Source of the DNA: Deinococcales bacterium
GTDB lineage: Bacteria; Deinococcota; Deinococci; Deinococcales; JAAFIG01
Assembly: GCA_043778225.1 (NCBI GenBank)
Contig: JAYWGM010000048.1
Coordinates: 1-64,000 of the forward strand
DNA length: 64,000 nucleotides
Reading direction: 5' to 3'
The position numbers were made by a program, and so were the translations under genes. The notes beneath the pieces are model-generated. The model worked only from the letters and a program-made list of their open reading frames with translations, was not told where the DNA came from and did no database searches. The stretch's first letter is position 1. Each line of letters opens with the position of its first letter. Positions 1 to 64,000 of the stretch are shown here, piece after piece.

Positions 1-102
1 GTCAAACTGTCGTTCAAACGTTAATTCGGTTTCGTTGTCACTCCTTTTAGTCGGTTAATCAGTCAAAATACGCGACTGATTAACACAATTTGGTATCAGC
101 CC

Positions 103-693
103 CTAATTGAGGGTACGTTTTTGCACCCCGACAAACTCGGACAAAATCTCGTAGCGCTCAAACAGATTTTTAGCCTCGAGTACACGCTGAGCATCCATAC
201 CGCTCAAGCGCAAATTGGCAGCAATAAATGAGGCTTTTAGGAGCATATCCTCGGGGACTTCGCTCGAGACATCACCAAATTTAGATTGCATTCGGGTTAG
301 GAATTTTTCTAAAACATCTTTGGCAATCGCTTTTGTCCAGAGCGGGTTGCTTGGCTCGAGTGGGTCGAGTTCAGCACGGGCGCAAGAATACGGATAAGTT
401 TCGTTGTCAATGTCTAAAATCCGAAAACGTTCACCACCAACCACAAGGATATTGGCACTACCGTCTGGGTTATACTCAACTTCGACCAGATGTGCCAAGG
501 TTGCTACTCGAGCAATCCGCGCTTCGGGTTCATTGGTGGCTGGCAAAACACACGGAATACCAAACGGTTCGCGGGAGTGGCGAATGCGTCCGAGTAATTC
601 TCGGTAGCGTGGTTCAAAAACGTAAAGTGGTAATGCCATACCGGGCAGCAGTACGAGTTCTCCAAGCGGAAAAAGGGGAATCTCCATAGCCAT
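103..693 (-). CDS. LON peptidase substrate-binding (N-terminal) domain protein
   Basis: IPLFPL...LLPGMALPLYVFEPRYREL motif typical of LON_substr_bdg; start trimmed to MAMEI. Confidence 0.85.
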   Translation of the reverse strand: MAMEIPLFPLGELVLLPGMALPLYVFEPRYRELLGRIRHSREPFGIPCVLPATNEPEARIARVATLAHLVEVEYNPDGSANILVVGGERFRILDIDNETYPYSCARAELDPLEPSNPLWTKAIAKDVLEKFLTRMQSKFGDVSSEVPEDMLLKASFIAANLRLSGMDAQRVLEAKNLFERYEILSEFVGVQKRTLN

Positions 694-856
694 AAAGATA
701 TTGCCTTTGGGAATTTTCGGCAATGAACTACAATACAATCTATTCCTAGCGTTGTGGACAGTTTGAATAAGAATCCTTGTTCGGTAAATTACAAAATAAA
801 TGTAGCCCAATCCAACTCAGGACATTTCCCTTCGCGCAAAAAAGCACAATAAAGTC

Positions 857-1762
857 ATGGAACTGACCTTCTCGAGCCTTGCCAGTGCCATCAGTTGGTT
901 GTTTGTGCTGCTGACCTATCAACAATACCGCGAGCGTGGCAAAACCCATCAGTTACTGTGGACACTTGGCATTGCCAGTTTTGCAATTGCCGTAACCGCC
1001 GATACGGTGGCTCGAGCGCAAGGCGGTTGGACAGAAAACGGCTACCGAATCTGGTACTTTTTTGGTGCGATGCACGGCGTAACTTTATTGGGGCATGGCA
1101 CACTCATGCTCTTAAACCGACAAAATTGGACACAGCGTTTACTCGAGGTGGTGGTGGTTGCCATGATCGTCAGCGCAGTGGTGGTCTCCAACGCCCCAAT
1201 TAACTTTGCAGCCCTGACAAGTGCTTTCGAGCCAAAAGGCACAGCTTTTCCAGACATTGCCCAAATGGGTTTTGCGACCCCGCGTTTTTGGACAATCCCG
1301 TTTAATTTGTACGGCACGGTTTGGTTGGTCGGTGGCGCACTGTACTCAAGCCTGACCTTATGGCGTTCACATCGCCCAAGAGCCATCGGCACACTTTTGA
1401 TTGCCTTGGCTGGCTTGGTGCTGGCTGGAGTCTCGAGCCTCAATCGCTTTGGGATTGATTACCTCGAAGCCATTGGGCGGATGGTTGGCGTGACGATTCT
1501 ATTTATTGGTTTTTTGTTCACCACACTCGAGCCAAATGCCCTGCCAAAAGTCAATTTGCCCAAAGTTCCACCCTTGGTGATTGCGGCTGTTTCGGGCTGG
1601 GGACTGGCTTTGGCAGCATTTTTTCAACTCGAGCCAGCCGCTTGGCAAGCCGTGATTGAATACCCCGGACTATTTTTGATTGCTGGAATTATTTTAGGTT
1701 TGTTCTGGTTAGTGCTGCAAAAAGCCCGCCAACGGGCTAAAATTTTTACAAACCATGAGTAA
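857..1762 (+). CDS. Multi-pass membrane protein, unknown function
   Basis: 301-aa ORF with about 9 hydrophobic segments; overlaps the start of the next gene. Confidence 0.7.
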   Translation: MELTFSSLASAISWLFVLLTYQQYRERGKTHQLLWTLGIASFAIAVTADTVARAQGGWTENGYRIWYFFGAMHGVTLLGHGTLMLLNRQNWTQRLLEVVVVAMIVSAVVVSNAPINFAALTSAFEPKGTAFPDIAQMGFATPRFWTIPFNLYGTVWLVGGALYSSLTLWRSHRPRAIGTLLIALAGLVLAGVSSLNRFGIDYLEAIGRMVGVTILFIGFLFTTLEPNALPKVNLPKVPPLVIAAVSGWGLALAAFFQLEPAAWQAVIEYPGLFLIAGIILGLFWLVLQKARQRAKIFTNHE

Positions 1763-2960
1763 CTGGCTGGGTTTACCTCGGAACAGCCAAAAAGCACAGG
1801 GGTTGCTGACCTTGATTGGCAGTAACTTTTTAATGTGGAGTGGCTTTTTTATGATTATTCCACTGATAAGCCTGCATTTTGTCGATAACTTGGCTTGGAG
1901 TGCTGCTTCGGTCGGTCTGGCTTTAGGAATACGCACTGTGGCACAGCAAGGTTTAGCCATTTTTAGCGGTGCGATTTCAGACAAAATCGGCGCTCGAGGC
2001 TTAATTTTATCGGGCTTAGTGATTCGCAGTCTGGGGTTTGGCAGTCTTGCATTGGTGACTGATTTCACTGGTTTGTTGTTGGCAGTGACTTTTTCTGGAA
2101 TTGGTGGAGCGCTCTTTGAAGCCCCGAAAAACGCGGCAGTGGCGGCATTGACTCCCCCCCAGACTCGTCCCAAGGTCTACGCCGTTTTAGGGATGACCGG
2201 AAGCATTGGTATGGCGCTTGGTTCTTTACTTGGTGCGGTTTTAATTAAACTTGGTTTTGAAACAGCCGCGCTGATTTCAGGGGCGGTGTATTTGCTGACT
2301 TTTTTGATCAATTGGCACTACTTACCAGATTTACGGGTCTCGAGTGGCGAACAAACAGCTTTGGCTGGCTTTGTTTTGGTTTTACAAGACCGACGATTTG
2401 TCTGGTTTACCTTTTTGTTGGCTGGAATGTTTTTGATGTGGTCACAATTTTCGCTGGCTTTAACCCTCGAGGCAACCCGTTTAGCTGGCACAACCGATGC
2501 TGTGGCATGGCTTTTTTTGGTCAACACAGGTACGGCAATTGCTTTACAGTACCCGATGACCACGTTTAGCCGCCGCTATTTTTCGGATGTGCATTGCCTG
2601 ATGCTCGGTGTCTTGATGATGGCATTGGCACTCTATGGGGTGGCTTTTTCAAACACGATTGTTTGGCTACTGATTTGCGTCGCATTTTTTTCGATTGGCT
2701 CGAGTCTTGCCAGCGCCCCACAACAAACCATCACGGCTCAATTGGCAAATCCCCAAGCTCGAGGCACTTATTTTGGCTTTAGCGCCTTGGCTTTTGCCCT
2801 TGGTGGTGGCTTGGGCAATGCCCTTGGCGGCGTGTTGCACGATTTTGGGAATCAAATTGGCTGGCTTGGCTTACCTTGGATTCTGATTGGCTCGAGCGGA
2901 ATGCTGACGGCTTTAGCGTTGTGGTTTTTTGCCAAGACGATGCCAAAAAATTTAAGCTGA
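1755..2960 (+). CDS. MFS transporter (MdtH-like)
   Basis: MFS motif A-like [11 protein letters not shown]; about 12 TM segments; 401 aa. Confidence 0.85.
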
Positions 2961-4451
2961 TTGCTTTGTTGGTTTCGATCGCCACCAACGCAAAAGTGGC
3001 GGAAGCACCAGTGTCAGCAGTGCAATTGCTAGAATTGTGGCACTGATTGGGCGCGTTAAAAAGACACTGGCATCGCCTTGCGAAATCCCCATTGCCCGAC
3101 GAAATTGTTCTTCGGCTTTTGGTCCTAGAATCATCCCAACAATGGCTGGCGCAATTGGAATATCAAAACGGCGCATAAAATAACCAAGAATGCCAATGAT
3201 GCCAAGCAAAGCCAAATCAAAAACGCTGTTATTCAAACTATAGACACCGATACTGGCAAAAACCAAAATCCCACCGTACAAAAGTGGGCGTGGAATCTCG
3301 AGCAAGCGCACCCAGACTCCGGCTAAAGGCAAATTCAAAATCAGCAGCAGGACATTACCAATGTATAAACTGGCAATTAAACCCCAAACCAAATTGCCGT
3401 TGGTGGCAAACAACAGTGGACCCGGTTGAATCCCATAACTCTGAAAAGCCGCCAACATAATCGCTGCGGTGGCACTGGTTGGTAAACCAAGGGTTAAAAG
3501 CGGCACAAGCACACCCGCCGCACTGGCGTTGTTGGCGGCTTCTGGTCCTGCCACCCCTTCGATAGCCCCATGTCCAAATTCTTCTGGGTTTTTGGCAAGG
3601 CGTTTCTCGAGTGCGTAAGATAAAAACGTCGGGATTTCCGCTCCACCGGCTGGCATCACCCCAAATGGGAAACCAAGCGCCGTCCCACGCAGCCACGGTT
3701 TCCATGAACGCGCCCAATCTTCTTTGGTCATGCTGGCACGTTCGCGCAGCTTAATCACATCTTGTCCAGCCCGAAATCTCGAGGCAACATATAAAGTCTC
3801 GCCGACTGCAAATAAACCCACCACAACAATCACGACTTCGATACCATCGGCGAGTTCGGCAAAGCCAAGGTCAAACCTCGATTGCCCAGTCAGCACATCT
3901 GTACCAACCAAACCAAGTAAAATCCCAAAAAACAAGCCAAAAATACCGCGCAGTGGGCTACCACCCAAAACCGCACTGACGGTGATAAACGAGAGCATCA
4001 TGACCGCAAAGTATTCAGCCGCCCCAAATGCCAAAGCTAAATTGACCGCCACAGGTGCAAAAAAAGTCAGCAGGATGGTGGCAATTGTTCCAGCCACAAA
4101 ACTTCCTATGGCGGCAGTGGCTAAAGCGGCTGCACCTCGACCGGCTCGAGCCATTTTGTTGCCCTCGAGACTGGTGATGATGCTGGCACTTTCGCCAGGT
4201 GTATTGAGGAGAATACTGGTGGTGCTGCCGCCGTACATTGCACCGTAATAGATACCAGCAAACATGATAAACGCCGAGACTGGCTCGACCTTAAAAGTGA
4301 CGGGCAGCAACAACGCCACGGTTAAAGCTGGTCCAATGCCCGGCAAGACCCCAACCATCGTGCCAAGGAAAACACCGATAAAACCAAAAAGTAAATTGGT
4401 TGGGGTCATCGCTACCGAAAAACCAGAAATAAGTGATTGTAGTGTTTCCAT
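2952..4451 (-). CDS. tctA: Tripartite tricarboxylate transporter permease TctA
   Basis: [15 protein letters not shown]...NTPG and PEAANNA motifs. Confidence 0.95.
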
Positions 4452-4539
4452 AGAACCTCGGTGAGCTTTGGGCTTTGTTTCTCGAGAAATCGTGTATCAA
4501 TTTGTTTATGGCTCAGGACTCATTGCCCAATCAGCCATT

Positions 4540-5096: not shown

Positions 5097-5102
5097 AACT
5101 GC

Positions 5103-28331: not shown

Positions 28332-30893
28332 TTACCCCGTGTTGCGTAATCCTGCCGCAATGCCTTGGATGCTCAACAGCAAGGCTCGCTCGAGGGTGGC
28401 GCGTTCGGCATTCTCGGTGGGTGTAGAGCGATAACGGCGCAACAATTCGACTTGGACAATATGAATCGGGTCGACATAAGGGTTGCGGACTTCGATACTG
28501 CGCCGCAAGCGTGGTTCGGACTCGAGTAAATCTCCACCGATGGCGGCTTTGACGTGCTGCACGGCTCGAGCGTATTCCTCGAGAACCGCGTCCCGCAGTT
28601 GCGGTTGCTCGGAAAGTGCAGCATAGCGCTTAAAAATACTCATGTCGGACTTGGCAAGGCTCATCTGGGCGTTATCGAGCAAACTGCGAAAAAATGCCCA
28701 ATCGCGGTAGAGTTTGGCGCTTAAACCCGCTTGTTGTTGCTCGAGTGCCGCTAAACCAGCCCCAAGCCCATACCACCCGGGAACAGTCGCACGGTTTTGT
28801 GTCCAACTCATGACCCACGGGATGGCTCGCAAATTATCCAAAGTCGGTTTACCGGGGCGACGCACTGGGCGGCTGGCAATCCGTAGGCTGGCAATTTCGT
28901 TGATTGGCGTAACCGCTTCAAAAAACTCGAGGAAGTTTGAGTCAAAAACCAAGGCTTGATAGGCTTGGCTCGAGGCAGCCGCCGCCAGATTCAAGGCTTC
29001 GCGCCATTGCAGTGGCACAATCTGAGGTTCTTGAGCAGCAGCTACAATCATCGCGTACAGCAGTTGCTCGAGGTTACGTTTTGCCAATTCTGGACTGGCA
29101 TAACGGTCGGCAAGGGCTTCGCCTTGTTCGGTCAGGCGCAAACCCGCACCAATTGTGCCGGGTGGTTGCGCCATGATGCCTCGAGCCGCCGGACCGCCAC
29201 CACGCCCAATACTTGTACCGCGCCCATGAAAGAAACGATACGGCACAGCCAGCGCCGCAAAAAGTTCAGCTAATTTTTCTTGGGCTTGGTAAAGCGCCCA
29301 GTTGGCAGCCAAGAAACCCGCTTCTTTGTTGCTGTCCGAGTAGCCAAGCATCACTTCTTGGACTCGAGAACCCAAGTGAGCGCGGTAAATCGGGCTTTGC
29401 AAAAGCGCTTGCATCACACTTGGGCAGTTCTCGAGGTCGTGTGGTGTTTCAAAAAGCGGTGAGACATCCAGCGCCAAAAAACCAGCCTCGCGCCCAAGAA
29501 TCAGCGCTTCAAGGACATCCGAAGCACTTTCGCCATGCGAAATCACATAGCGCCCAAAAGCATGGGGGTTGGTCTCGAGGTGCGCCCGCATGACCCGCAA
29601 TGGCTCGAGGACGGCTGTAAGCTCCTCTGAACTAGCCATACCTATCGGCAACAATGGTCGTCGGGTCTCGAGTTCGCTTTCAAGCAATGCCATACGTTCT
29701 GGCTCGGACAGAGCTGCATAGCTTTGGCTAACTCCGCCTAAGGCAAGTAGCTCGGCGACTGCACTTTCGATTTTACCCGAGAATTCACGAATATCGAGCG
29801 CCACCAAATGCGTCCCGAACATTTTTGCCCGCACTAAGACTGGCTCGACAAAAACCCGAGCCGCCCGTTCTTGTCCAGCTGCCACCAAAGAATCGCGCAC
29901 TTGCTCGAGGATTGGGACAGCCTCGACTGATTCGGTGCGTAAGCGCAAATGCAGCGCTTCGAGTTCGGCTCGCCATGGCTCTGGGGCAGTCGAATCTAAA
30001 TGAACATGAACCCGTTCGCGGTGCTGCGAAAGCACCGTAAAAAGCTGATTGATTTCTAAGCGCAAGGTTTCTCGAGCTTGGGTCTGGTGATAGCGCAGGG
30101 TTTCGGCAGTCACTTCTGGGGTCACAAACGGGTTTCCATCGCGGTCGCCGCCAATCCACGAATAAAACTTGAGCGGCAGATTGACCTCGGGCGTACCCGC
30201 CCCAAATTCTTGCTGCATGGCGTTTTGTAAATCAACCTGTAAACTGGGCAGGGCTGCCGAAATTGAAGTTAAATAATGCAGACCATTGACCACTTCGTCG
30301 TGAACTGTTGGGTTGCGAGCTTGAAGCTCGAGTGTTCCCCACAGCACTTCAATTCGAGCCGTGACCCGCTCGATCGCTTCGGAGCGCTCAGACTCAGACT
30401 CGAGTAAGTTCAGTTCTTCGGAAATATGCTCGAGGTGCGCCCGAACAGTGCGGCGGCGCAATTCGGTCGGATGCGCCGTAAAAGTGCTACCCAACTCGAC
30501 TTGGCGCAGTAAATCGGCAACTTTTTGCGCCGAAAACCCCTGTTTTTTAAGCTGAAAAATCGCATCATGCAGGCTTTGTTTGCGTGGCTCGAGAACCGAG
30601 GCTCGGGTGTCACGCCAACGCACCCGATGGCGCTCTTCGGCAAGATTGACCAAATGAAAATACTGGGTAAAAGCCCGAATCAGGGCTTCGGCATCGGCAA
30701 TGCCCAACTTAGCAGCAATCGTCTCGAGTTGCTGCGGTGCGCTCTGGTCGCCGCCTCGAGCGCGTTTGGTCAGTTCGCGCACTTCTTCTTCGAGGTCAAA
30801 AAATTCTTGACCTTCTTGCTCGATGAGAACCGCACCAAGGCAGCGCCCAAGTAAATCCACATCTTTAGACAGCGCATCTCGAGTAAAATTCAT
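28332..30893 (-). CDS. ppc: Phosphoenolpyruvate carboxylase
   Basis: FTAHPTE, WIGGDRDGNP, QEVMLGYSDSNK, FHGRGTSIGRGG, LRAIPW, GLRNTG. Confidence 0.97.
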   Translation of the reverse strand: MNFTRDALSKDVDLLGRCLGAVLIEQEGQEFFDLEEEVRELTKRARGGDQSAPQQLETIAAKLGIADAEALIRAFTQYFHLVNLAEERHRVRWRDTRASVLEPRKQSLHDAIFQLKKQGFSAQKVADLLRQVELGSTFTAHPTELRRRTVRAHLEHISEELNLLESESERSEAIERVTARIEVLWGTLELQARNPTVHDEVVNGLHYLTSISAALPSLQVDLQNAMQQEFGAGTPEVNLPLKFYSWIGGDRDGNPFVTPEVTAETLRYHQTQARETLRLEINQLFTVLSQHRERVHVHLDSTAPEPWRAELEALHLRLRTESVEAVPILEQVRDSLVAAGQERAARVFVEPVLVRAKMFGTHLVALDIREFSGKIESAVAELLALGGVSQSYAALSEPERMALLESELETRRPLLPIGMASSEELTAVLEPLRVMRAHLETNPHAFGRYVISHGESASDVLEALILGREAGFLALDVSPLFETPHDLENCPSVMQALLQSPIYRAHLGSRVQEVMLGYSDSNKEAGFLAANWALYQAQEKLAELFAALAVPYRFFHGRGTSIGRGGGPAARGIMAQPPGTIGAGLRLTEQGEALADRYASPELAKRNLEQLLYAMIVAAAQEPQIVPLQWREALNLAAAASSQAYQALVFDSNFLEFFEAVTPINEIASLRIASRPVRRPGKPTLDNLRAIPWVMSWTQNRATVPGWYGLGAGLAALEQQQAGLSAKLYRDWAFFRSLLDNAQMSLAKSDMSIFKRYAALSEQPQLRDAVLEEYARAVQHVKAAIGGDLLESEPRLRRSIEVRNPYVDPIHIVQVELLRRYRSTPTENAERATLERALLLSIQGIAAGLRNTG

Positions 30894-36383: not shown

Positions 36384-36898
36384 TGCCAGCTTTTGTGGTA
36401 GATGACAATTTGCTGATTGTGGCAGAAAAAGCGGTTGCTGATGAACATACTTCCGAAACTTGTCGGCAAAATTGTATTTATGCTTTGCGGCAAGCTCAAA
36501 AAAATGTAGTCGTGCTGGATAAATCCGATCAAATTCTAGCTGGTTATCTTCAAAAACTTCGACCGCTGCGTAAGGGTTTAGCAGGCTCAGAATTTTTAAT
36601 CTGGTTGCTGCAAAATCAGTATCATCCAAGTTATTGCGAACGGGTAGCAATTACGCCACTCAATGATAGTTTTGCAGAAGTACCACCTGAGATTAGAGAA
36701 AAGAGCGCATCTGGACAGCGTTTTGACCGTAAGGATCACAAATGGTTGGCTGTGGCTCGAGCTAGTGCAAACAGCCCTGTAATTTTGAATGCAACGGATA
36801 CGGACTGGCGTGATTGGTTGGGGTTACTCGGGCAGAATGATTTTTTGATTCGGTTTGTCTGTCCAGAATTGATGGTTACTGATGCTAAACCAGCTTAA
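36383..36898 (+). CDS. PIN-like hypothetical protein partnering the ATPase
   Basis: VVDDNLLIVA N-terminus and D.KD.KWLAVA...NATDTDW acidic motifs; TAATG coupling. Confidence 0.6.
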   Translation: MPAFVVDDNLLIVAEKAVADEHTSETCRQNCIYALRQAQKNVVVLDKSDQILAGYLQKLRPLRKGLAGSEFLIWLLQNQYHPSYCERVAITPLNDSFAEVPPEIREKSASGQRFDRKDHKWLAVARASANSPVILNATDTDWRDWLGLLGQNDFLIRFVCPELMVTDAKPA

Positions 36899-38540
36899 AA
36901 CGCAACTCGAGGACAGCAAAGCGCCGTTTTTACTGGCGGTGTCTGGTGGGCGTGACTCAATGGCATTACTGCATTTAGCTCATGCCGCTAAGCTCGAGAT
37001 TTGTGTGGCGCACCTTGACCATACCCTGCGTGAAAACTCGAGCCTCGATGCAGAATTTGTCCGAGAAGTCTGTGCAGGACTCGAGATACCTTTTTTTTCG
37101 GAAACCATTGCAGTCTCGAGCATTGCCACCAAACGCGGCTGGTCGCTCGAGGAAGCCGCCCGAAATGTGCGCTATGAATTTCTGTCTCGAGTTGCCAAGA
37201 AAAATAGCTGCCAAACAATCCTAACCGCTCATACGCTCGAGGACAATGCTGAAACGATTTTAATGCAACTGCTGCGCGGTACAGCCAAGGCGACTGGCAT
37301 ACCGCCACAAAATGGACGAGTGTTCCGACCGCTACTGGGGATTTCAAAAACAGAACTCGAGACTTATTTGCTCGAGCATGGTCTAACTTGGCGTGAAGAC
37401 CCTAGCAACACCAGCCCCCAATTTACCCGAAACTGGGTGCGTCTTGAGATTCTGCCGCGCTTAACCGAACGTTTTCCCAACACTGTTCAACGCCTTGCAA
37501 GATACGCCACAATTTCGAGGGATGAAGACACGTTTCTCGAGCAGCTTTCGACAATTCCAGTCTGGACTGACCTACGACTCGAGCAAAAAGCCATTCAACG
37601 CCGTGTGATTCGTAAAATCCTTGAGCAAAGTGGTGTGCCAATAGATTATACCCACATTGAGAGCCTTAGAACTGCCCTCGAGCAATCGCAGACCACCAGA
37701 ATTTCATTGCCCAATGATTTTGTGGGTCTTGTCCAAAACGGTAAAATCAATATCCATCCATCAACCGTAGGGGCGACCCTTGTGGTCGCCCTGCTCAATT
37801 CAAATGCTGTTACAGGGCGGGTACAAGACCCGCCCCTACAAAATCAGGGGTTTGAATCAGCGCTCGAGTTGGCGCAAAAGGCTTTTCCAAATGCGGTTTT
37901 GCGTATCCGAGAAAACGGCGATTTTATAACTTTGTCTGGTGGCACAAAAAAACTTTCTCAAGTCCTGATTGACCGTAAAATTACTCGAGAAATCCGCGAC
38001 CACATTCGGGTGTTGGCGATTGGGCAAAAAATTGTTTTTGTCGGTCTCGAGCCACCACTTTTGGATGCCAGTTTGCCAGCCCCCAAAGACCCCGAACTCG
38101 AGGCAATGAAAGTGGCAATACAACAAGCCCAAATCGCGGCAACTCTGGGCGAAGTGCCAGTTGGGGCGGTCATTTTGTACAACAACTCAGTGATTGCCAA
38201 AGCCCACAACCAATCTCGAGCTTTATCCGACATGACCCAACACGCTGAAATTGAGGTTCTACGGACGGCGGCTCGAGTTTTGAAGACACCATACCTGACC
38301 GATTGTACTCTGGTCGTCACGCTCGAGCCATGCCTGATGTGCCTTGGTGCAGCCCTTGAAGCTCGGGTGGGGCGGATTGTTTTTGCGGCTCGCAATCCAA
38401 AGAGCGGTGCATTAGGCAGTGTTTTGGATGCGACTCGAGCCAATTGGAATCATGGCTTTACGGTGCGAACGGGTTTACTCGAGCAAAAAGCACAATTGTT
38501 GTTAAGCACTTTTTTCTCGAGCAAACGCGACAAACCGTAG
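36882..38540 (+). CDS. tilS: tRNA(Ile)-lysidine synthetase fused to TadA-like tRNA adenosine deaminase
   Basis: AVSGGRDS, EEAARNVRY, TAHTLED, RPLL; C-terminal EVPVGAVI...HAE...TLEPCLMC. Confidence 0.93.
   Translation: MLNQLKTQLEDSKAPFLLAVSGGRDSMALLHLAHAAKLEICVAHLDHTLRENSSLDAEFVREVCAGLEIPFFSETIAVSSIATKRGWSLEEAARNVRYEFLSRVAKKNSCQTILTAHTLEDNAETILMQLLRGTAKATGIPPQNGRVFRPLLGISKTELETYLLEHGLTWREDPSNTSPQFTRNWVRLEILPRLTERFPNTVQRLARYATISRDEDTFLEQLSTIPVWTDLRLEQKAIQRRVIRKILEQSGVPIDYTHIESLRTALEQSQTTRISLPNDFVGLVQNGKINIHPSTVGATLVVALLNSNAVTGRVQDPPLQNQGFESALELAQKAFPNAVLRIRENGDFITLSGGTKKLSQVLIDRKITREIRDHIRVLAIGQKIVFVGLEPPLLDASLPAPKDPELEAMKVAIQQAQIAATLGEVPVGAVILYNNSVIAKAHNQSRALSDMTQHAEIEVLRTAARVLKTPYLTDCTLVVTLEPCLMCLGAALEARVGRIVFAARNPKSGALGSVLDATRANWNHGFTVRTGLLEQKAQLLLSTFFSSKRDKP
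37767..37839. repeat. REPIN: two inverted GTAG-type REP palindromes inside tilS-tadA
   Basis: GTAGGGGCGACCCTTGTGGTCGCCCTG (+) and GTAGGGGCGGGTCTTGTACCCGCCCTG (-). Confidence 0.8.
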
Positions 38541-41315: not shown

Positions 41316-41683
41316 ATTTACCATAGAAGGTTTCTCGAGTCTGACTGCTTATCGGGCTAACTTTGTTCAATCGGTGCATTTGCTTAAAGTAGCTTTACTC
41401 GGCGAGAAAGCGGGGACTTTGCCTAAAATTCAAGAACGAATTCTCGAGTATGGGCAACAGCATTAAATACCTTCGGACTCAAATTAAAAAACCGTACAGA
41501 ATTCTAGGTAGCTCATCACAATTTGACTTGGGCGCTGATTAAATCCGCCAAGGCTCGAGCCGCATTGCTTTGCTTTGCCAACCAAGTTTCGACCAATTTC
41601 ATTGTCTTGGATGGTGCAGTACAGAGTAGTATTACAAATTCTCCCACTCTGTACAGAACCGTCATTAGCTCGAGATAAAAAGT

Positions 41684-44353
41684 TTACGGCAAGCGAATGG
41701 TCAATGCCCCAAGGATAACGTCAATCGGAGTAAGTTGGTCGCCTGTTGTTACTCCGTTACCAAGTTGCCCTTCGGTGTCATCGCCCCAACTGAACATTTT
41801 ACCGTCTGACTTGAGTGCCAACGAATGCAAACCGCCAGCCGCAATCGCCACAATGTTGGTCGCACCACCAACGACGGTTGGAGTGGATTTATCGGCAAGT
41901 GGTGTTCCATCGCCAAGTTGTCCTTTTTCGTCCGAACCCCAAGTCAGCACCGTTCCGTCCTTTTTTAATGCCACAGAATGATTGAGACCAGCCGCAATTG
42001 CCACGATGTTGTTGGAGTTACTGCCGCCAACTGCAACTGGTGTCGTTCTATCTGTACTTGAGCCGTCGCCGAGTTCGCCACTAAAATTTGCGCCCCAAGC
42101 CAGCAGTGTGCCGTCTGATTTGAGGGCTAAAGAAAAACTCCGACCCGCCGCAATTGCCACAATGTTGGTTGCATCTTGTACTGGTACAGGTGTCGTCGAA
42201 GACACTCCGCCAGCAGCATTATCGCCAAGTTGCCCGAAATCATCCGAACCCCAAGCCAGTATTGTTCCGTCTGATTTGAGTGCCAAAGAATGTTTTTCAC
42301 CGGCTGCAATGGCAACAGTGTTGCTTGTGCCTGGCACTAAGGTTGGTGTCGTGTTGTTAGGTGCAGTGTTGCCTAGTTGTTTGTCACGATTATCACCCCA
42401 ACTGTACACATTGCCGTCGTCTCTTAATGCCAGTGAATGGTTTGTGCCTGTGGCTATCGAAGTAAATTTGAAGGTCACGCCGACATCTACAGGAACGGAT
42501 GTCGAATTAATAGAGCCTTGTAGGTTATTGCCAAGTTGTCCGTGGGTGTTATCGCCCCAACTGATGAGCGAACCATCGGTTTTGAGTGCCAGCGAATAAA
42601 ATCCACCTGCGGAAACCGCCACGATGTTGGTGTTCTTTGCGCCACTGACCGCTACAGGTGTGGGTGAGTTATTCAGGTTACTTGTGCCGAGTTGACCAAA
42701 AGCCCCTTGTCCCCAAGCCAAGACGGTGTTGTCTGATTTTAAGGCTAAAGTATGGTGTTGACCACCACTGATACTGGCTTGGTTTGGATTGATGCTGATA
42801 AAAATGGTTTTTTTCTGGGTTGGGTCTTGGACACTACTTGCAGTAATCCGTACAATCCGTCCAACAGAAGTGTTTGGGGCGGAATAGGTGTTGGTGGTGC
42901 CAAATCCGGTATTTTGCAGCGAACCATTGCCACTCGAGAGTGTCCCAATACCATCGTTTTCGATCTTCCAAGTCGAGTTTGGATTGAATTGATTCACATT
43001 ACCACTCGAGGTCACTGTGGCGCTCAGTTGGGTTGACTCACCAGTTTTTAAGGCTGACTTTGCGGCGGTCAAGGTCACACCCGTGATACTGGCTGGTTTG
43101 ATGGTCATGGTGATTGTGCCAAATTTGCTCGAATCCCCAGTGCTGGTAGCTTTAATCTCCACTGTACGTTCTCTGGCATCGGCACCTGGAACACTAAAAG
43201 TGATGGATGAACCTGTGGGGTTAATCAGAATTGCATTGTCAGTGGTGACAATGCTCCAAGTCACGGCATTACTAAACGTACCATTGCCTGTAACCGTGGC
43301 GGTCAGCGTGGTGTTTGTGGCAGGCAACACAGTTGTGGCAGGCGCACTGATGGTCACGGCAGTCACACCTGGAGTGGCGGCTGTGATGCTCAGGCTGACT
43401 TCGCCAAATTTGCTGGCATCCTGATTGCTGGTGGCACGAATCACAGTTGTGCCATTTGGGGCAGTAGCAGGAATCGAAAAAACCACGGGTGAACCTGTCG
43501 TGGCAGACAATGAACCTACTCCACTGGTAATGCTCCAAGTGACTGCATTACTAAACGTACCTGTTCCTACGACCACAGCACTTAAATTGGCTTGTGTTCC
43601 GCCACTGACAATCGGCATGTCTGAACTGGCAGTCACCGAAGTAATACTCGAGTTTGTGCCTTGAAACGTAGTCAGGATTGTATTTTGTAATGTCAGAGTA
43701 TAGGCGTTCCCAGCCAAATCGGTTAGGCTCGAGCTAACCAGCAGTGCATAGGAAATAGCGGATTGTGCCGAGGTTGTCAGGGTCACGGTTTTGTTATCTG
43801 CCGCAACACTGGCAGCACTTACAGTTAATCCCTGTGATGGAAAACTAAAATTCGTAGCTAAATTCCCCCCTGCAATGGCTTCACTAAAGACCACGGTCAC
43901 ACTGGTGTTGCTTGCGGCGGTTGTACTTACCACCGTTGGAGGCGTGGTATCCCCAGTAACAGGTGCGGCGGTCACGGTCAATTTGAAGGGAATGGTTTTG
44001 GTCAGAGAACCCGAAATGCCTTTGATAGTCAGGGTTGTCTCGCCCAGAGCAGCATTAGCGGCAACGTTCACAGTCAAGGTGCTGGTGCTTGAGGTCGAAA
44101 CTGGATTAAAGCTGCTGGTCACACCTGTAGGCGCTCCTTCGAGACTCAGCGCTACCGAATTTGCAAAACCCCCCGTTTTGGTTAAGCTAACCGCAAGTGT
44201 CCCTGATTGGGTTCTTTTAACCGTGAGGCTCGAGTTATCCAAACTTAAACTAAAATCTGGTACTGGAGCAGGGGCTGGCGGACAGGCAACCAAACCAACC
44301 ATCAAGAAACCCGCCAAAAGTGTTTTGCCAATAAAACCAATCTTGAACTGCAT
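41684..44353 (-). CDS. Surface lipoprotein with Ig-like domains and C-terminal RCC1 beta-propeller
   Basis: Lipobox LVAC; about 7 repeats of IAAG..HSLALKSDG...WG....GQLG; GGAGG RBS before MQFKI. Confidence 0.9.
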   Translation of the reverse strand: MQFKIGFIGKTLLAGFLMVGLVACPPAPAPVPDFSLSLDNSSLTVKRTQSGTLAVSLTKTGGFANSVALSLEGAPTGVTSSFNPVSTSSTSTLTVNVAANAALGETTLTIKGISGSLTKTIPFKLTVTAAPVTGDTTPPTVVSTTAASNTSVTVVFSEAIAGGNLATNFSFPSQGLTVSAASVAADNKTVTLTTSAQSAISYALLVSSSLTDLAGNAYTLTLQNTILTTFQGTNSSITSVTASSDMPIVSGGTQANLSAVVVGTGTFSNAVTWSITSGVGSLSATTGSPVVFSIPATAPNGTTVIRATSNQDASKFGEVSLSITAATPGVTAVTISAPATTVLPATNTTLTATVTGNGTFSNAVTWSIVTTDNAILINPTGSSITFSVPGADARERTVEIKATSTGDSSKFGTITMTIKPASITGVTLTAAKSALKTGESTQLSATVTSSGNVNQFNPNSTWKIENDGIGTLSSGNGSLQNTGFGTTNTYSAPNTSVGRIVRITASSVQDPTQKKTIFISINPNQASISGGQHHTLALKSDNTVLAWGQGAFGQLGTSNLNNSPTPVAVSGAKNTNIVAVSAGGFYSLALKTDGSLISWGDNTHGQLGNNLQGSINSTSVPVDVGVTFKFTSIATGTNHSLALRDDGNVYSWGDNRDKQLGNTAPNNTTPTLVPGTSNTVAIAAGEKHSLALKSDGTILAWGSDDFGQLGDNAAGGVSSTTPVPVQDATNIVAIAAGRSFSLALKSDGTLLAWGANFSGELGDGSSTDRTTPVAVGGSNSNNIVAIAAGLNHSVALKKDGTVLTWGSDEKGQLGDGTPLADKSTPTVVGGATNIVAIAAGGLHSLALKSDGKMFSWGDDTEGQLGNGVTTGDQLTPIDVILGALTIRLP

Positions 44354-44475
44354 ACCTACCTCCATAGAGAACTGCGAATAACCTTAACAAGCGGGGTGAG
44401 TGGCTTTGATGTTTTCAAAAGCAGCAATGAACGCAAACCCGTTAGATACACAGTACAAAGTAGAGCGTAAATTGG

Positions 44476-56278: not shown

Positions 56279-58381
56279 TTACTTGTTGTTCTTGACCAAG
56301 GTTTCCATGATTGAACGTGGAACTTCGGAGTAATGATCAAAAAACATACTGTAACTGGCTCGTCCTTGGGTCATCGAACGCATATCGGTGGCGTAACCAA
56401 ACATTTCTGAAAGTGGCACGTGAGCTTTGACCAAGCGGGCATTGCCGCGTTCGTCCATGCCTTGGATTTGTCCACGACGACCGTTCAAATCGCCGATGAT
56501 GCTGCCCATGTATTCTTCTGGTACAACCACTTCAACCCGCATGATTGGCTCGAGAATGGCGGGTGCGCCTTTTTGGACGGCTTCCTTAATTGCCATGCTG
56601 CCAGCAATCTTAAACGCCATTTCCGAGGAGTCAACGTCGTGGTAACTGCCACCGGTCATGGTCACTTTTAAGTCAACAATTGGGAAACCAATCAGTGGAC
56701 CGGAGTGCAGGCTTTCTTCCATTCCTTTTTGGGCAGGTCCGACAAATTCACGTGGAACTTCGCCACCGACCACAGCGTTCTCGAATTGGAAACCAGCCCC
56801 ACGCTCGAGTGGCTCAGCGGTAATTTTAACGTGACCGAATTGTCCACGACCACCGGACTGACGCACAAACTTACCTTCGCAGTCCACCCGTCGGGTGATG
56901 GTTTCACGGTAGGCGACTTGTGGTGCGCCAACTGTGCTTTCGACTTTGAATTCGCGGCGTAAACGGTCTACCAGAATCTCGAGGTGAAGTTCACCCATGC
57001 CGCTAATGATTGTTTGACCACTTTCTTGGTTGGTCTCAACGCGGAAAGTTGGGTCTTCTTCGGCGAGCTTGGCTAAGCCAGCCCCCATGCGGTCTTGGTC
57101 AGCTTTGGTTTTTGGTTCGACCGACAAGCTAATTACGGGGTCTGGAATTTCGATTCGCTCGAGCATCACGACGTTATCGTTATCACCAATAATCGTGTCA
57201 CCGGTCGAGGCATCTTTCACGCCCACAACCGCACCGATGTCGCCAGCCCTAAGTTCAGCAATTTCTTCACGGTGATTGGCGTGCATTTTCAGTAAGCGCC
57301 CAACCCGTTCTTTTTTGCCTTTGCTCGAGTTATAGACATAGCTGCCGCTGACCAATGTTCCCGAGTAAACGCGCACAAAGGTTAAGCGACCCACATACGG
57401 GTCGGTCATGATTTTGAAAGCCAAACCAGCCAATGTTCCTTTTGGATCACTTGGGAATTCAACTTCGTTACCCTCTTCGTCTGTACCTTTAATCGGTGGG
57501 ACATCGAGTGGGCTTGGGAGGTAATCAATCACCGCGTCAAGCATCAGTTGAACGCCTTTATTCTTGAGCGCACTGCCACAAAGTACGGGGAACATAATCA
57601 TGCTAATTGTTCCGACGCGCAAAGCAGCTTTGAGTTCCATTTCCTCGACTTCTTGTCCCTCGAGGTACTTTTCCATGACACTTTCAGAGGCATCGGCAGC
57701 CACTTCGACCAGTTCTGCACGAGCAGTTTTGGCACGCTCGAGCCAATCGGCTGGTATCTCGGTTTCTTCGATATTTGTGCCAAGGTCGTTATGGAATAAA
57801 TGCGCCCGCATCCGCACCAAATCAATAATCCCAATAAACTTGTCCTCTGCACCCATCGGCAATTGAATCGGGGCTGGTTTAGCACCAAGGCGTTCTTTGA
57901 TGTCGTTGACCACCAAGTTAAAGTCCGCACCGGTTTTGTCCATCTTGTTGCTAAAAGCAATCCGTGGCACTCGGTAGCGGTCGGCTTGCCGCCAAACGGT
58001 TTCGGATTGTGGTTCTACGCCTTGCGAGGAGTCAAAGACGGCTACAGCGCCGTCAAGGACGCGCATACTGCGTTCGACTTCGATCGTAAAATCAACGTGA
58101 CCGGGGGTATCAATGATATTAACCACAAAGGGAATACCGTACTGGGCGTGAGTCCATTCAGCAGTTGTGGCGGCGGCAGTAATCGTGATACCACGTTCGC
58201 GCTCTTGCTCCATCCAGTCCATTGTGGCTAACCCTTCATGAACCTCGCCGATTTTGTGAACCTTGCCTGTGTAATACAAAATCCGCTCGGTGGTGGTGGT
58301 TTTACCAGCGTCAATGTGCGCCGCAATACCGATGTTACGGGTGGTGTTTAAGTAGTTTTTAAGATCAAGGTCTTTGAACAT
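56279..58381 (-). CDS. fusA: Elongation factor G
   Basis: [41 protein letters not shown]. Confidence 0.98.
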
Positions 58382-59144: not shown

Positions 59145-59154
59145 GGTTTACCCC

Positions 59155-59562: not shown

Positions 59563-59720
59563 TCGACTCCTTCTCGAGTTCGACAACGGGTTTCTAATGT
59601 CCCCCGCAGATGCTTTAAGTGTAAACGGATTGTTAATTTCAATCCCACTCGAGCAAACTTTGCAAATATACTCGAGAAGACAGCAAAACACAAGAGGCGT
59701 TTTGAAGAAGTTTATAGTTC

Positions 59721-60239: not shown

Positions 60240-60291
60240 CTGTAGAGTTTACAGTCTTGAGCCATCAAAAACATCCAAAAAATTTATTCAC

Positions 60292-62259
60292 CTAGTCTGT
60301 TTGTAAAATTTCTACCCCATAAGGCTCGAGATACAGAATATCGTAGGTCTTGCCAGTCAAAATACTTCTGGCTGGCTGCTCGAGTTTAATGCTGTGTGGT
60401 TTTGGGCTGTGGTTTAGGTAAAAACGCAGACAATGCCCATCTTTGTGGCGCTCGGTAATCTCGATTTCGGCGTGGCTGGTTGACTCGAGTAACCCAGCCA
60501 GCAGCGCTTTAGGCAAAGCAGCATCACCAAGCGCCCCAACATAAATAACCTGTCCTTTTCCTACCAGATTGCGGCTGATGGCAACACTTTGGGCATAGTG
60601 GTCTTGGGTGTAATGGGCGATTGCACTGGCGCTGGTCAATTCGAGGACATCACACCAAAGGCTGATTGAGATGTCTGGCAGCTGTGCATCAGTCCACCTG
60701 ATGGCATTGCTGTTTTGGTACAACGAATCGTATTCGACCACTTTGACCCCAGCCAGAGGTTGCAGTAAACCCGGCAGGGCTTGATTGACAATCGCGTTGC
60801 TGTTGTCTTTGACCCCACTTCGGGCGGTTAAGACCAATGTGCCACCGTTTTCTACAAATTGCTCGAGCTTGGCGGTTATTTCTGGGGTCACGAGGTGCAA
60901 TAAAGGCGCAATGATGATTTTGTAAGGGCTTAAATCGGCTTGAGTAGAAATCACATCGGTGCTGATATTGCGCCGATGCAAAGCACTGTACCAGTAACCA
61001 AATTGTTCGGTGTACGATAAGTTTGGATTATTTGGTTGGATTTGAAGCGCAAATCTCGAGTCGTAATCTTGAAGCAGCGCGACGGTTGCTTCAATCTTTG
61101 AAGCAAGAATCTGGCTGCCAATTTGTTGTAGCTCGAGTCCAAATTTTTTGGCTTCTTGGTAACGTCGCCCAGTTGTGCCATCATGCTCGAGTAAGCCGTG
61201 CCAGTATTGCTCTGTGCCAAAGCGGGCAGTGCGAAAACGAAAAAACACAATCCCATCTGCGCCGTGAGCAATGGCTTGGTATGCCCAAAGCCGCAATTCG
61301 CCTGGACGTGGGTGAGGCACAACCATTTCCCAGCCGCCAGCCCCTGCTTGTTGTTCCATGACCCAGAAATTTTGTTGTTTTAAGCCTCGTATGGTGCTGT
61401 GTCCAAGGGCGGCTCGAGATGAATCATCATTTGCTTGGATGTTCCACCAAATTCTTGGGTAATTATCCCAACTGACAAAATCAAGCTCTTTTGCTAAATC
61501 AAAATAATCAAGTTGATCGTAGCCAAAGCCCATCAAATTATGGGTGATAAAATGTGCTGGGCAAGCGGCGCGAATCAGTTTAATCTGTTCGGCTTGAAAC
61601 GACACGTAGCCATCGGAGCTAAAACGGGCAAAATCGAGCGCTAAACCCGGATTATGCGAAGCCCCCGTCTCGAGTGGCAAAGGAATTTGTGACCAAGTTG
61701 TGTAGGTCTGAGACCAAAAAATTGTTCCCCAAGCGGCTTCTAAGGCGTTGAGTGAAGTGTATTTTTGCTCGAGCCAATTTTGAAAGGCAGTTTGAGCAGC
61801 ACTCGAATACGAACGATCACCAAATTCGTTATCTATTTGCCAGCCAATAACGTCTGGACAGTTGGCATAGTGGGCAGTCAGGGCAGTCACAATTCGTTTG
61901 GCGTGTTGCCGATACCCAAGATGATGTGGACAGTAGCCACGGCGGTGTCCAAAGGTTACTGCCTGACCACTCGGCATGACCCTAAACAGCGTTGGGTCGC
62001 TGCTCATCAGCCAAGCGGGTGGCGAGGCAGTTGGCGTACACAGTACAACCTCAAGACCATGGGCTGACAAAATGGCAATCGCTCGGTCAAGCCAAGTAAA
62101 ATCGAATTTGCCCAATTCTGGCTCGAGTTTGACCCATGCAAATTCAGCAAGGCGCACCAAATTAAACCCTGCTTCCTGCATTAGTTTGGCATCGGTTGCC
62201 CAACGGTCTTCTGACCACTGCTCAGGGTAATAATCTACACCAACATAAAATTTATTCAT
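60292..62259 (-). CDS. GH42 beta-galactosidase
   Basis: GVDYYPEQW, AEFAW..LEP..G.FDF, PTASPPAW, WQIDNE, FWVMEQQ, EQYWHG. Confidence 0.92.
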   Translation of the reverse strand: MNKFYVGVDYYPEQWSEDRWATDAKLMQEAGFNLVRLAEFAWVKLEPELGKFDFTWLDRAIAILSAHGLEVVLCTPTASPPAWLMSSDPTLFRVMPSGQAVTFGHRRGYCPHHLGYRQHAKRIVTALTAHYANCPDVIGWQIDNEFGDRSYSSAAQTAFQNWLEQKYTSLNALEAAWGTIFWSQTYTTWSQIPLPLETGASHNPGLALDFARFSSDGYVSFQAEQIKLIRAACPAHFITHNLMGFGYDQLDYFDLAKELDFVSWDNYPRIWWNIQANDDSSRAALGHSTIRGLKQQNFWVMEQQAGAGGWEMVVPHPRPGELRLWAYQAIAHGADGIVFFRFRTARFGTEQYWHGLLEHDGTTGRRYQEAKKFGLELQQIGSQILASKIEATVALLQDYDSRFALQIQPNNPNLSYTEQFGYWYSALHRRNISTDVISTQADLSPYKIIIAPLLHLVTPEITAKLEQFVENGGTLVLTARSGVKDNSNAIVNQALPGLLQPLAGVKVVEYDSLYQNSNAIRWTDAQLPDISISLWCDVLELTSASAIAHYTQDHYAQSVAISRNLVGKGQVIYVGALGDAALPKALLAGLLESTSHAEIEITERHKDGHCLRFYLNHSPKPHSIKLEQPARSILTGKTYDILYLEPYGVEILQTD

Positions 62260-62260
62260 T

Positions 62261-63751
62261 TTATCTGCCCCAAGCAATCTGGCTAGAGCGCAACTCGAGT
62301 TTGAAATCACGAATTTTAGTGTTTTGGTCAATCAGCAGTATTTCGATGCCAGTCATGGTCGCAAAATCCTCGAGCATTTCGGCAGTCACGCAATAACTGT
62401 AAGCTGTATGGTGTGCGCCTCCTGCGTAAATCCAAGCAGCACAAGCAGTCTTAAAATCAGGTTGGCACTGCCAAACGGCTCGAGCCACAGGTAAGTTGGG
62501 CATCGGTGGCGGTTCAATGGCAGTAACACTATTGACGATTAAGCGAAAGCGATTGCCTAAATCCACCAGCGAGGCATTGAGGGCTGTGCCAGCAGGGGCA
62601 TTAAAGACGCTTCGTACAGGATCGGATTTTCCACCAATTCCAAGAGGATGAATCTCGAGGCGGGGCTTAGTGGCGGCAATACTTTCACAAACCTCGAGCA
62701 TATGCGCCCCAAGCACCAGATGATTGTTGACTTCGAGATGATAAGTATAATCTTCCATAAAGCTCGTGCCACCAGTTAAGCCGTGTCCCATGACTTTCAT
62801 GGCGCGTAACAGGGCAGCTGTTTTCCAATCGCCTTCTGCCCCAAAACCATAGCCTTGTGCCATCAGGCGTTGTACTGCTAAACCGGGTAGTTGCTCGAGT
62901 CCGTGTAAATCCTCGAAGGTCGTGGTGAAGCCCTTAAAGTTACCCTGCTCGAGGAAATCCTTTAATCCAAGTTCGAGTTTGGCACTGTAACGAAATGCTG
63001 CGTGGCTCGAGCCAGATGGCTGTAATTCGGGTGCAATTTCGTACTGGCGAGTATATTCCTCGAGTAGCGAATCTATTCTTGAATCCGCTATGGCGTTGAC
63101 TCGAGCCACCAAATCACCAATGCCGTAGCCATTGACACTAAAACCAAATTGTTGTTCGGCAGCAACTTTATCACCGTCGGTCACCGAAACAAAGCGCATA
63201 TTATCGCCAAAGCGAGCCAATGCCGCGCCCTGTAAATCGTGCCAAGCCCGTGCTGCTCGAGTCCATGCACTTAAACATTGCAAGACTTCGGGGTCTGACC
63301 AATGCCCGACAATCACTTTGCGATTCAGTTTTAATCGGGTGTGCAAATGCCCAGCCTCGCGGTCGCCATGGGCGGCTTGGTTGAGGTTCATAAAATCCAT
63401 GTCAATGCTGTTCCACGGTAAATCCTTATTAAATTGGGTGTGCAGATGACACAAGGGTTTTTGCAATTGCTCGAGACCACGAATCCACATTTTGGCTGGC
63501 GAGAAGGTGTGCATCCATAAGACCACGCCAGCGCACTCGGCACTCGAGTTTGCTTCGAGTAGAGCCGTTGTAATTTCATCGGGCGTGGTGAGTAATTTCT
63601 TGAACACAAATGGAATTGGTAATTGCCCACTCGCGTTTATGCTCAAAGCAACGGCGGCGGCATTGGTGGCAACTTGCTCGAGTGCCGAAGCACCGTACAA
63701 ATGCTGTGAGCCGCAAAAAAACCAGATTTCGGATTTGCCAAGATTATTCAT
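62261..63751 (-). CDS. araA: L-arabinose isomerase
   Basis: [45 protein letters not shown]. Confidence 0.97.
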
Positions 63752-64000
63752 GCTGACCTCTTTTTTGTCCGTACTGATTTTGGTAACGCTGATATAAGCG
63801 TTCGATGTCATCAGTTGCCAATGGTTTTACATTGCCCAACTGCATGGCTAGAAACGATGTTTTGGCTACGTCCTCGCACATGATTGCGGCTTTGAGCGCG
63901 TCACGCGGGGTTTTGCCAATCGTAAAAACCCCGTGGTTTTGTAAAATAATCGCTGGGCTACGGTGATGCTCGAGTATCCGCACGACTTCATGTCCGATTT
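63744..64000 (-). CDS. araD: L-ribulose-5-phosphate 4-epimerase (partial, 3' end)
   Basis: [10 protein letters not shown]...A.KAA.MCEDVA...RYQN.YGQ; upstream of araA; cut by the window edge. Confidence 0.85.

Follow-up and report, generated by a model that had tools for sequence, protein, structure and literature searches.

CTCGAG as a highly iterated palindrome in a family of Deinococcales, under an apparently hexamer-specific force that acts on DNA

The palindrome CTCGAG pervades both the 64,000-nucleotide stretch of Deinococcales contig JAYWGM010000048.1 analysed here (the window, positions 1..64000) and the genome from which it comes (G000). We consider it very probable that the hexamer stands at a dynamic equilibrium under a selection-like force that is specific to this word and acts on the DNA itself, not on codons, peptides or RNA. 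This force would operate continuously in every lineage of the family to which G000 belongs (f1), more weakly in three sister families, and with reversed sign in a fourth. The G000 assembly comprises 4.03 Mb in 107 contigs (48.7% G+C, 89% complete). The family is represented by 19 genomes of five genera within a sample of 111 genomes of the order, and genes were called as crude open reading frame (ORF) picks, 50 of them in the window.

CTCGAG occurs 414 times in the window, whereas dinucleotide-preserving shuffles averaged 8.84 and never exceeded 16 (0/100 reached the observed count). The sites comprise 348 in coding DNA (6.36 per kb) and 66 in intergenic DNA (7.11 per kb). By reading frame, 208 are read as CTC-GAG (Leu-Glu), 69 as xCT-CGA-Gxx and 72 as xxC-TCG-AGx. 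A codon-preserving shuffle that kept the amino-acid sequence and the codon usage of each gene gave 37.0 ± 5.3 sites, with a maximum of 51 in 200 runs, against 349 observed. An initial annotation of the window had proposed hyper-abundance throughout and in several frames, and had named two signs of an artefact: loss of the enrichment under a codon-usage-preserving shuffle and confinement to a single frame. The hyper-abundance is borne out, the enrichment survives the shuffle in the window and in the whole genome, and the sites occupy all three frames and the intergenic DNA at like density.

A genome-wide hexamer count, suggested in the same annotation, gave 24,877 copies in G000, one per 162 bp and 26.7 times the order-0 expectation, placing CTCGAG at the top of all hexamers, about three-fold ahead of the next. 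Density reached 6.21 per kb in coding versus 5.91 per kb in intergenic DNA, and the coding frames hold 13,084 (Leu-Glu), 4,370 and 4,463 sites. Codon usage, amino-acid composition or dinucleotide bias could in principle produce such abundance as an artefact, and frame 0 (Leu-Glu) does account for 60% of the coding sites. We give this explanation virtually no chance, since the 21,917 coding sites exceed a synonymous shuffle 9.3-fold (20 runs, 2,347 expected, maximum 2,447) and a codon-order shuffle 22-fold (998 expected), the window exceeds its dinucleotide shuffles 47-fold, intergenic density equals coding density, and related words lie near or below their expectation.

Flank preferences around the sites in G000 are weak and nearly random, with G at position −1 in 30.5% of cases, indicating that CTCGAG is a true hexamer. 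Palindromy past the hexamer was found at 19–20% of sites versus 25% expected, in coding and intergenic DNA alike. A longer motif or a hairpin centre was ruled out by the weak flanks and this lack of extended palindromy, and intergenic hairpins, noted in the initial annotation, are not the general setting of the sites. One-off words (GTCGAG, ATCGAG, CTCGAC and others) have observed/expected ratios (O/E) near or below 1, and the deamination neighbour CTTGAG/CTCAAG is not depleted (O/E 1.41 in G000). The bias is directional in all neighbour classes, beyond C-to-T.

The word has left a mark on the proteins. In G000, 69% of the 18,906 Leu-Glu pairs are spelled CTCGAG, although outside such pairs Leu is encoded by CTC in 9.2% of cases and Glu by GAG in 22.5%; by our own arithmetic, codon usage would predict odds of CTCGAG at these pairs ~100 times lower. 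Where the present amino-acid sequence permits CTCGAG, the word fills 69%, 56% and 43% of the positions in the three frame classes. No dipeptide of the genome is more over-represented than Leu-Glu (O/E 2.31), while Glu-Leu stands at 0.96, indicating that the DNA word has altered the proteome. A separate observation concerns the Leu-Glu pairs spelled otherwise, in which Leu codons ending in G were unexpectedly rare: TTGGAA occurs 278 times versus 1,210 for TTAGAA, though TTG is the commoner codon. In two genomes of the family, CTGGAG stood at 0.25 of the codon-preserving shuffle.

Comparison across relatives, as the initial annotation had advised, revealed enrichment in all 19 f1 genomes, a weaker signal in three sister families and depletion in the family f3. 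The f1 genomes, from all five genera, carry 4.3–6.8 CTCGAG per kb, and in two further members the word ranks first among 4,096 hexamers by z-score. The three sister families, sampled at 24–100 kb per genome, are intermediate. Under the codon-preserving shuffle, CTCGAG ranks 1/4,096 in six of nine sampled genomes (G067, G024, G056, G019, G015 and G013; O/E 2.0–3.5, z 7.7–19.3), 11th and 20th in two others, and is not elevated in the last, G016. In the first 80 kb of this genome (G016:C1:1-80000), 83 of the 86 TCGA sites are CTCGAG and every other NTCGAN context has an O/E of at most 0.08, suggesting that the hexamer is specially preserved even in G016.

All 23 sampled f3 genomes, which belong to genus g7, are depleted, with 40–942 sites each; a 400-kb sample of the f3 outgroup G014 (C1:1-400000) contains 4 sites (O/E 0.03, or 0.07 of the synonymous shuffle). 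Leu-Glu O/E is 1.15–1.54 in the three intermediate families versus 0.98 in the depleted one. We also observed that f3 purges CTCGAG in 23/23 genomes with neither an XhoI-family nuclease nor a close homolog of predicted CTCGAG methylases found in them. Avoidance of other palindromes forms a separate pattern: about half of the 64 palindromic hexamers are almost absent from G000 (GGCGCC 3 copies; GGGCCC, AGGCCT and GACGTC 1 each), and GGCC has 131 sites in 4 Mb. The palindrome-avoidance profile of G000 correlates with that of a congener at a Spearman coefficient of 0.81, and with that of another genus at 0.53, but not with that of the f3 outgroup (0.11).

Congeners of G000 are only 70–82% identical in DNA, and a metagenome scan with phosphoenolpyruvate (PEP) carboxylase, made to find a closer strain, returned matches of 60% protein identity or less. 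With no close strain at hand, orthologs were aligned codon by codon, and conditional site occupancy was compared in place of polarised gain and loss. Against the congener G003 (236 gene pairs, 78% amino-acid and 46% codon identity), 873 of 1,493 sites were shared. The 972 conserved Leu-Glu positions gave a table of 546/138/106/182, that is, a probability of a site of 0.80 given a site in the partner and 0.37 given none. Neutral controls from the same alignments predict 0.249 × 0.363 = 0.09 for keeping CTC and GAG and 0.059 × 0.117 = ~0.007 for acquiring them. Conservation in orthologs, a further check named in the initial annotation, is thus evident as a retention of 0.80 versus a neutral 0.09. 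A rough two-state fit yielded 0.27 expected losses and 0.60 expected gains per position over the divergence of G000 and G003; compared with our own approximate conversion of the control codon turnover, loss is several-fold slower and gain more than ten-fold faster than neutral.

At greater distances, positional agreement fades while the enrichment stays. Against G011, from another genus (151 pairs, 53% identity), the two probabilities were 0.83 and 0.71, a positional memory of 0.12. Leu-Glu O/E in the two genomes was 2.29 and 2.25, and just 353 Leu-Glu positions were common, of 875 and 824. The comparison with G014, the depleted outgroup (171 pairs), showed 0 of 1,170 sites in common. G014 has Leu-Glu opposite just 143 of 735 frame-0 sites and Leu-Ala, Leu-Asp, Leu-Arg, Val-Glu or other pairs opposite the remainder; in the same orthologs, Leu-Glu had an O/E of 2.31 in G000 versus 0.93 in G014. 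These ortholog comparisons indicate that CTCGAG has arisen independently and continuously in each lineage.

The footprint of a site is small. Divergence at four-fold sites is flat (0.47–0.52) at all distances from conserved sites and dips to 0.375 solely within 0–3 bp, indicating that the constraint is point-like. A mutational cold zone or a conversion tract around the sites was sought in the same data and not seen. Sites are spaced somewhat evenly within genes: the coefficient of variation (CV) was 0.884 versus 0.978 ± 0.007 under a null in which occupancy was reshuffled among the available positions of each gene. Close pairs are scarce (227 versus 484 expected at 7–12 bp; 332 versus 587 at 12–18 bp), spacings of 60–240 bp are ~13% enriched, and those of 480–1000 bp are fewer than expected (358 versus 462). 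No two sites lie 6 bp apart; such a pair would form GAGCTC, which has 24 copies in G000. Genome-wide, the spacing CV in G000 is 1.00, aside from 14 gaps of at least 1.8 kb. Nine long motif-free stretches that were fetched consist of coding DNA with a low G+C content of 34–46%, and such islands look like imported DNA. Ribosomal RNA was rejected as their cause, as no Rfam match was found and the stretches are low-GC coding DNA.

Phages carry the word as well, and together with the low-GC islands that lack it they point to a force on resident DNA in general. A scan of viral contigs for tight CTCGAG triplets returned at least 124 stretches, and loci with the signature encode phage proteins: an endolysin and a tail protein in L341, and terminase, portal and major head proteins in L327/L328. 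The phage ORFs exceed all 200 codon-preserving shuffles, with counts that are biased upward because some seed triplets lie within the tested ORFs. Whole viral records, which are free of this seed bias, had 2.4–5.2 sites per kb in 5/5 cases checked. A complete 110-kb phage (G113; 110,308 bp, direct terminal repeats) contains 318 CTCGAG and 0 GAGCTC, and a complete 36.9-kb phage genome contains 107 and 0. As a side observation, G113, G112 and G115 are complete or nearly complete phages with 2.4–2.9 CTCGAG per kb and GAGCTC absent. Motif content may help assign phages to hosts.

What could drive such an equilibrium? It is quite possible, though somewhat short of probable, that mismatch or heteroduplex correction is biased toward the perfect palindrome through a putative CTCGAG-recognising factor, as a gene-conversion-like drive. 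The factor would recognise CTCGAG, and wherever any one-off variant forms a heteroduplex with a perfect site, correction would restore the perfect site on both strands. Such biased resolution would speed gains and slow losses. Synonymous opportunities would be filled first, after which amino-acid changes would be pushed, for example to Leu-Glu from X-Glu or Leu-X. With a site already present close by, the asymmetry would vanish, and a mild spacing interference would result. Mismatch repair is available, as MutS was found in 19/19 f1 genomes. We infer both the repair or conversion bias, in place of selection on individual sites, and the dedicated recognition factor.

Several points weigh against this mechanism. 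No recognition factor was found, so its central actor is hypothetical, and the flat four-fold-site divergence shows no direct sign of conversion tracts. Rates of gain and loss come from a rough two-state model near saturation and are not polarised substitutions, and most f1 genomes are metagenome-type assemblies, 57–94% complete. Retention, convergent gain, saturation and even spacing would be equally expected under weak site-wise selection, and selection on the phage accounts more readily for phages at host-like density than a slow repair bias of the host would.

Site-wise selection is the main alternative. The copies of CTCGAG would be densely and fairly evenly arrayed so that a protein that recognises the word can bind or mark them, either to organise the nucleoid or as a "self" label for a nuclease or a defence system. 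The available positions alone would give a less even spacing, with more close pairs and long gaps, and phages carry host-like densities with GAGCTC absent; these two features somewhat favour site-wise selection over a conversion drive. Positional conservation lies far above neutral, the argument that Xu, Lawrence and Durand (2018; PMC5861425) apply to the cyanobacterial palindrome HIP1 in the portions of their article used here, where selection is argued for from conservation. Nevertheless, we regard site-wise selection as rather unlikely. No candidate protein was found. Across genera, occupancy of conserved Leu-Glu positions is nearly independent of the state of the partner (0.83 versus 0.71), suggesting that no particular position matters. 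With 69% of Leu-Glu pairs filled and the dipeptide inflated 2.3-fold, the pattern looks like saturation of opportunities and not like a needed density; genome-wide spacing has a CV of 1.00, and imported islands of 2–5.6 kb without sites are tolerated. A Chi-like role in particular is disfavoured by the palindromic nature of the word and by the AddAB/RecB nuclease domain (PDDEXK_1), which was detected in 10/19 f1 genomes and not in G000. A Chi/AddAB self signal is unsupported on these grounds, the domain being absent from G000 and 8 other f1 genomes of the 19.

The first cause listed in the initial annotation was repair linked to an orphan methyltransferase (MTase), and the gene content of f1 lends it no support. 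G000 encodes ~20 MTase-like genes of Type I, Type ISP, gamma, beta, C5 and D12 classes. The MTase inventory covered G000 and one genome from each of five genera (87–94% complete), six in all, and the classes examined for universality were PF00145, PF01555, PF02384 and PF02086. No MTase cluster at 35% identity or more spans more than three of the six genomes in the first three of these classes, and no universal f1 MTase was found in any of the four. Beta-class enzymes occur in 6/6 but do not form one group: three are 48–79% identical, and the others are 24–31% identical or match briefly over the conserved catalytic region. HsdM-like MTases are ordinary Type I enzymes accompanied by HsdS. The D12 (Dam-like) class, detected in 18/19 f1 genomes, splits into at least five groups, the largest covering 6 of the 14 genomes whose D12 loci were fetched; G006 and G010 have weak D12 matches only, and GATC avoidance is genus-specific. 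G010 has no C5 MTase, yet it contains 21,883 CTCGAG. Look-ups of two G000 MTases in the PDB returned generic class matches with no clue to specificity. Beside the C5 class we note a 199-aa HNH nuclease encoded right after a C5 methyltransferase (L015:2483-3082, G000:C33), the latter being 80% identical in the congener G006.

No Vsr was found in G000. Deamination of 5-methylcytosine (m5C) combined with very-short-patch (VSP) repair was rejected on this ground, together with the 21,883 sites of G010 without a C5 MTase and the O/E of 1.41 for CTTGAG/CTCAAG. The XhoI-family nuclease PF04555 was absent from all 19 f1 genomes, G000 included, and from f3; its presence in 6/111 genomes of the order indicates that the search works. 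An XhoI/PaeR7I-type restriction-modification system was accordingly not found in f1. In the family f4, each XhoI-family nuclease adjoins a beta-class MTase (340 aa at three loci, 354 and 482 aa at two), and one broken nuclease adjoins a gamma-class MTase with a TaqI_C domain.

These partners served as probes for predicted CTCGAG methylases. Beta-type homologs (at least 62% identity) occur in genera g8 (7/12), g15 (6/9), g9 (11/16) and g12 (1/1), and gamma-type homologs (at least 44%) in g13 (3/5), g24, g27 (2/2), g23 and g20. Of the 25 beta-type carriers, 5 also hold an XhoI-family nuclease. Neither type has a close homolog in f1 (0/19) or f3 (0/23); the best f1 matches to the probes are 26–47% identical, with higher values on short segments alone, and a tblastn search of the whole of G000 with the XhoI-partner methylases recovered nothing closer. 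The MTase, cognate restriction endonuclease or Vsr that the initial annotation had proposed to look for was thus not encountered in f1, with PF04555 and the methylase probes at 0/19 and Vsr searched in G000. Judging by gene content, the force does not appear to be tied to any conserved MTase or restriction enzyme in f1.

A methylase-linked mechanism could nevertheless operate through enzymes that are non-orthologous or too divergent. CTCGAG would be methylated in each genome, and methylation-guided repair would create and protect sites, as in the model of Elhai or a variant of it. Every f1 genome inventoried has several MTases whose specificity is not readable from sequence, and predicted CTCGAG methylases are common in the order, mostly without an XhoI-family nuclease. 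In G016, 83 of 86 TCGA sites are CTCGAG, the pattern to be expected if methylated CTCGAG escaped an enzyme that cuts TCGA, and this genome encodes, without an XhoI-family nuclease, a homolog (63% identity) of the beta methylase that partners such nucleases. Nocardia has an orphan MTase for CTCGAG, with the motif clustered at the origin according to the relevant part of Blow et al. (2016; PMC4752239), and the available passages of a 2026 preprint report methylated CTCGAG and TCGA common to one hot-spring host-virus group whose taxon those passages do not state. We still judge this mechanism improbable. Added to the missing close homologs, the restricted MTase clusters, the divided D12 class, the G010 genome and the absence of Vsr from G000, site density within genera is no higher in methylase carriers than in non-carriers (1.15 versus 1.78 per kb in g8, 0.86 versus 0.93 in g9, 1.82 versus 1.99 in g15), and the enriched genomes G056, G019 and G013 have neither predicted methylase type. 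CTCGAG contains no GC dinucleotide, and G precedes it in just 30.5% of cases, so the G-meC rule on which the model of Elhai (2015; PMC4390886) rests in its section 3.4 cannot apply.

Alternatively, CTCGAG could be a DNA-uptake signal spread by molecular drive, with competence preferring CTCGAG-rich DNA and recombination spreading the sites, as proposed for the uptake signal sequences (USS) of Pasteurellaceae and the DNA uptake sequences (DUS) of Neisseriaceae. The ComEC domain occurs in 18/19 f1 genomes, and the word is common to all f1 genera, occupies all frames, distorts peptide composition, is slightly evenly spaced and is absent from imported islands. However, the named Deinococcus and Thermus controls have competence genes just as often, so ComEC does not discriminate. 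A hexamer is also far shorter than known uptake signals (~9–12 bases), the sites form no terminator-like inverted pairs, and the word is found in phages, whose entry does not depend on competence. We therefore consider an uptake signal very improbable.

Several known systems offer comparisons. USS and DUS are longer words at roughly one per kb, often paired as terminators, and are thought to spread by drive and not by organismal benefit. CTCGAG resembles them as a family-wide word in coding DNA with peptide effects that is absent from foreign DNA, and differs from them in being 6 bp long, present at six per kb, located outside longer inverted repeats and shared by phages. In E. coli, Dcm methylates CCWGG and Vsr imposes a very-short-patch bias that is small and limited to T:G mismatches from m5C deamination. 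Repair tied to a specific word would likewise shift word frequencies genome-wide, although here there is no Vsr and no universal C5 MTase, the deamination neighbour is not depleted and the bias is ~100-fold in odds. Chi is asymmetric, oriented with replication and marks self DNA for RecBCD/AddAB. CTCGAG is like it a short over-represented word and a possible self mark, and unlike it a palindrome in a family where the AddAB/RecB nuclease domain is found in just 10/19 genomes. The Nocardia case (PMC4752239), as far as the portion used here describes it, likewise concerns this hexamer, with sites that are not randomly placed and a solitary methylase; there the motif forms a local cluster between replication genes, unlike the genome-wide saturation seen here, and no homologous methylase was identified in f1.

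The closest parallel is found among the highly iterated palindromes (HIPs), which were recognised in cyanobacteria in the 1990s and still lack an accepted cause. Like HIP1 (GCGATCGC) and the alternate HIPs, CTCGAG is a short palindrome many-fold over-represented both within genes, whatever the frame, and between them; it is also lineage-wide, conserved between relatives above neutral and unexplained in its cause. The initial annotation had called it HIP1-like and selected or repair-driven, and this core holds, the enrichment being shuffle-proof, present in all frames and in spacers, and conserved and re-created above neutral; the methyltransferase link that came with it is not supported in f1.

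The differences from HIP1 are nonetheless considerable. CTCGAG is a hexamer and not an octamer, occurs in another phylum and is about six times denser, at one per 160 bp versus the ~one per kb given for HIP in the passages of Elhai (2015; PMC4390886) used for comparison. The same passages report a matching MTase wherever HIP is abundant, and the article mentions neither CTCGAG nor Deinococcus. CTCGAG lacks the GC dinucleotide needed for G-meC, and no cognate MTase was found in the 19 f1 genomes. By its gene content, f1 thus appears to depart from the methylase rule and from the G-meC model as those passages set them out. We found no published account of CTCGAG iteration in this phylum, subscription journals being outside the search.

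Within the window, the local density of CTCGAG differs between genes, and the features concerned are as follows.

1..64000, no strand assigned: CTCGAG copies over the whole window, 414, one per 155 bp.
28332..30893, minus strand: PEP carboxylase gene, 23 sites, 9.0 per kb.
36882..38540, plus strand: TilS-TadA fusion ORF, 23 sites, 13.9 per kb, the highest density among the long genes checked.
36901..37690, no strand assigned: stretch counted by hand in the initial annotation, exactly 13 sites in 790 bp.
41669..42933, no strand assigned: longest gap in the window without CTCGAG, 1,264 bp, within an 893-aa ORF at 41684-44365.
56279..58381, minus strand: EF-G gene, highly conserved, 7 sites retained, 3.3 per kb.

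The recount of 36901-37690 agrees exactly with the 13 copies counted by hand. The 893-aa ORF at 41684-44365 had no NCBIfam match. Among named organisms, a Deinococcus gave the closest EF-G to that of the window, at 74% identity, which agrees with a place in Deinococcales. The TilS-TadA ORF encodes 552 aa with family matches to TilS_N, TilS_C and TadA, joining a tRNA-lysidine synthetase and a tRNA adenosine deaminase in a single ORF. Inside it, in frame, lie two GC-rich hairpins (window 37768-37842) with stems of 8–9 bp that form a small REP-like repeat, with 3–4 copies each in G000 at up to 3 substitutions and short near-identical matches in 5/5 congeners searched. Two short matches that first appeared to be multi-copy were rejected as such: one is a low-copy hairpin repeat and the other a single-copy stretch.

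Two motif-poor islands elsewhere in G000 deserve mention. The largest motif-free stretch (G000:C44:57429-63066, locus L218) spans 5.6 kb at 33.7% G+C, contains five co-oriented ORFs of 254–428 aa and looks imported. An island nearly without CTCGAG (G000:C40:7693-11073; L012, L014 and L020) encodes a GmrSD-type nuclease along with a 431-aa protein that resembles methyltransferases and part of a C5 MTase; the congener G006 has a counterpart. Motif density can be of practical use in flagging imported DNA.

Overall, what is new here are the negative gene-content tests, the attenuated hexamer-specific signal in sister families, the confinement of TCGA to CTCGAG, the spacing interference, the point-like footprint and the phage genomes. 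A broader reading, which we advance tentatively and hold to be on the doubtful side, is that a methylase-independent CTCGAG-recognising system shapes genomes across the order. It would have reached saturation in one family, with ~100-fold odds and rewritten proteins, would have a weaker effect on three other families and their phages, and would have flipped to purging in a fourth without a resident XhoI-type system, as a new sequence-specific genome-editing force by biased conversion or self-marking. If true, this would provide a tractable entry to the 30-year-old HIP1 question, as complete sister-family genomes show the attenuated signal.

With one family saturated, three weak (several of their genomes near-complete or single-contig), one opposite and the phages alike, the phenomenon is testable. 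The distorted Leu-Glu content should be allowed for when protein evolution in the group is modelled. These results position CTCGAG as a second highly-iterated-palindrome system, in another phylum, denser, with a different word and apparently without the cognate methylase that anchors the leading model of HIP1. It separates the traits that are general to such systems, namely a selection-like force, saturation and effects on proteins, from methylation, which is possibly incidental.

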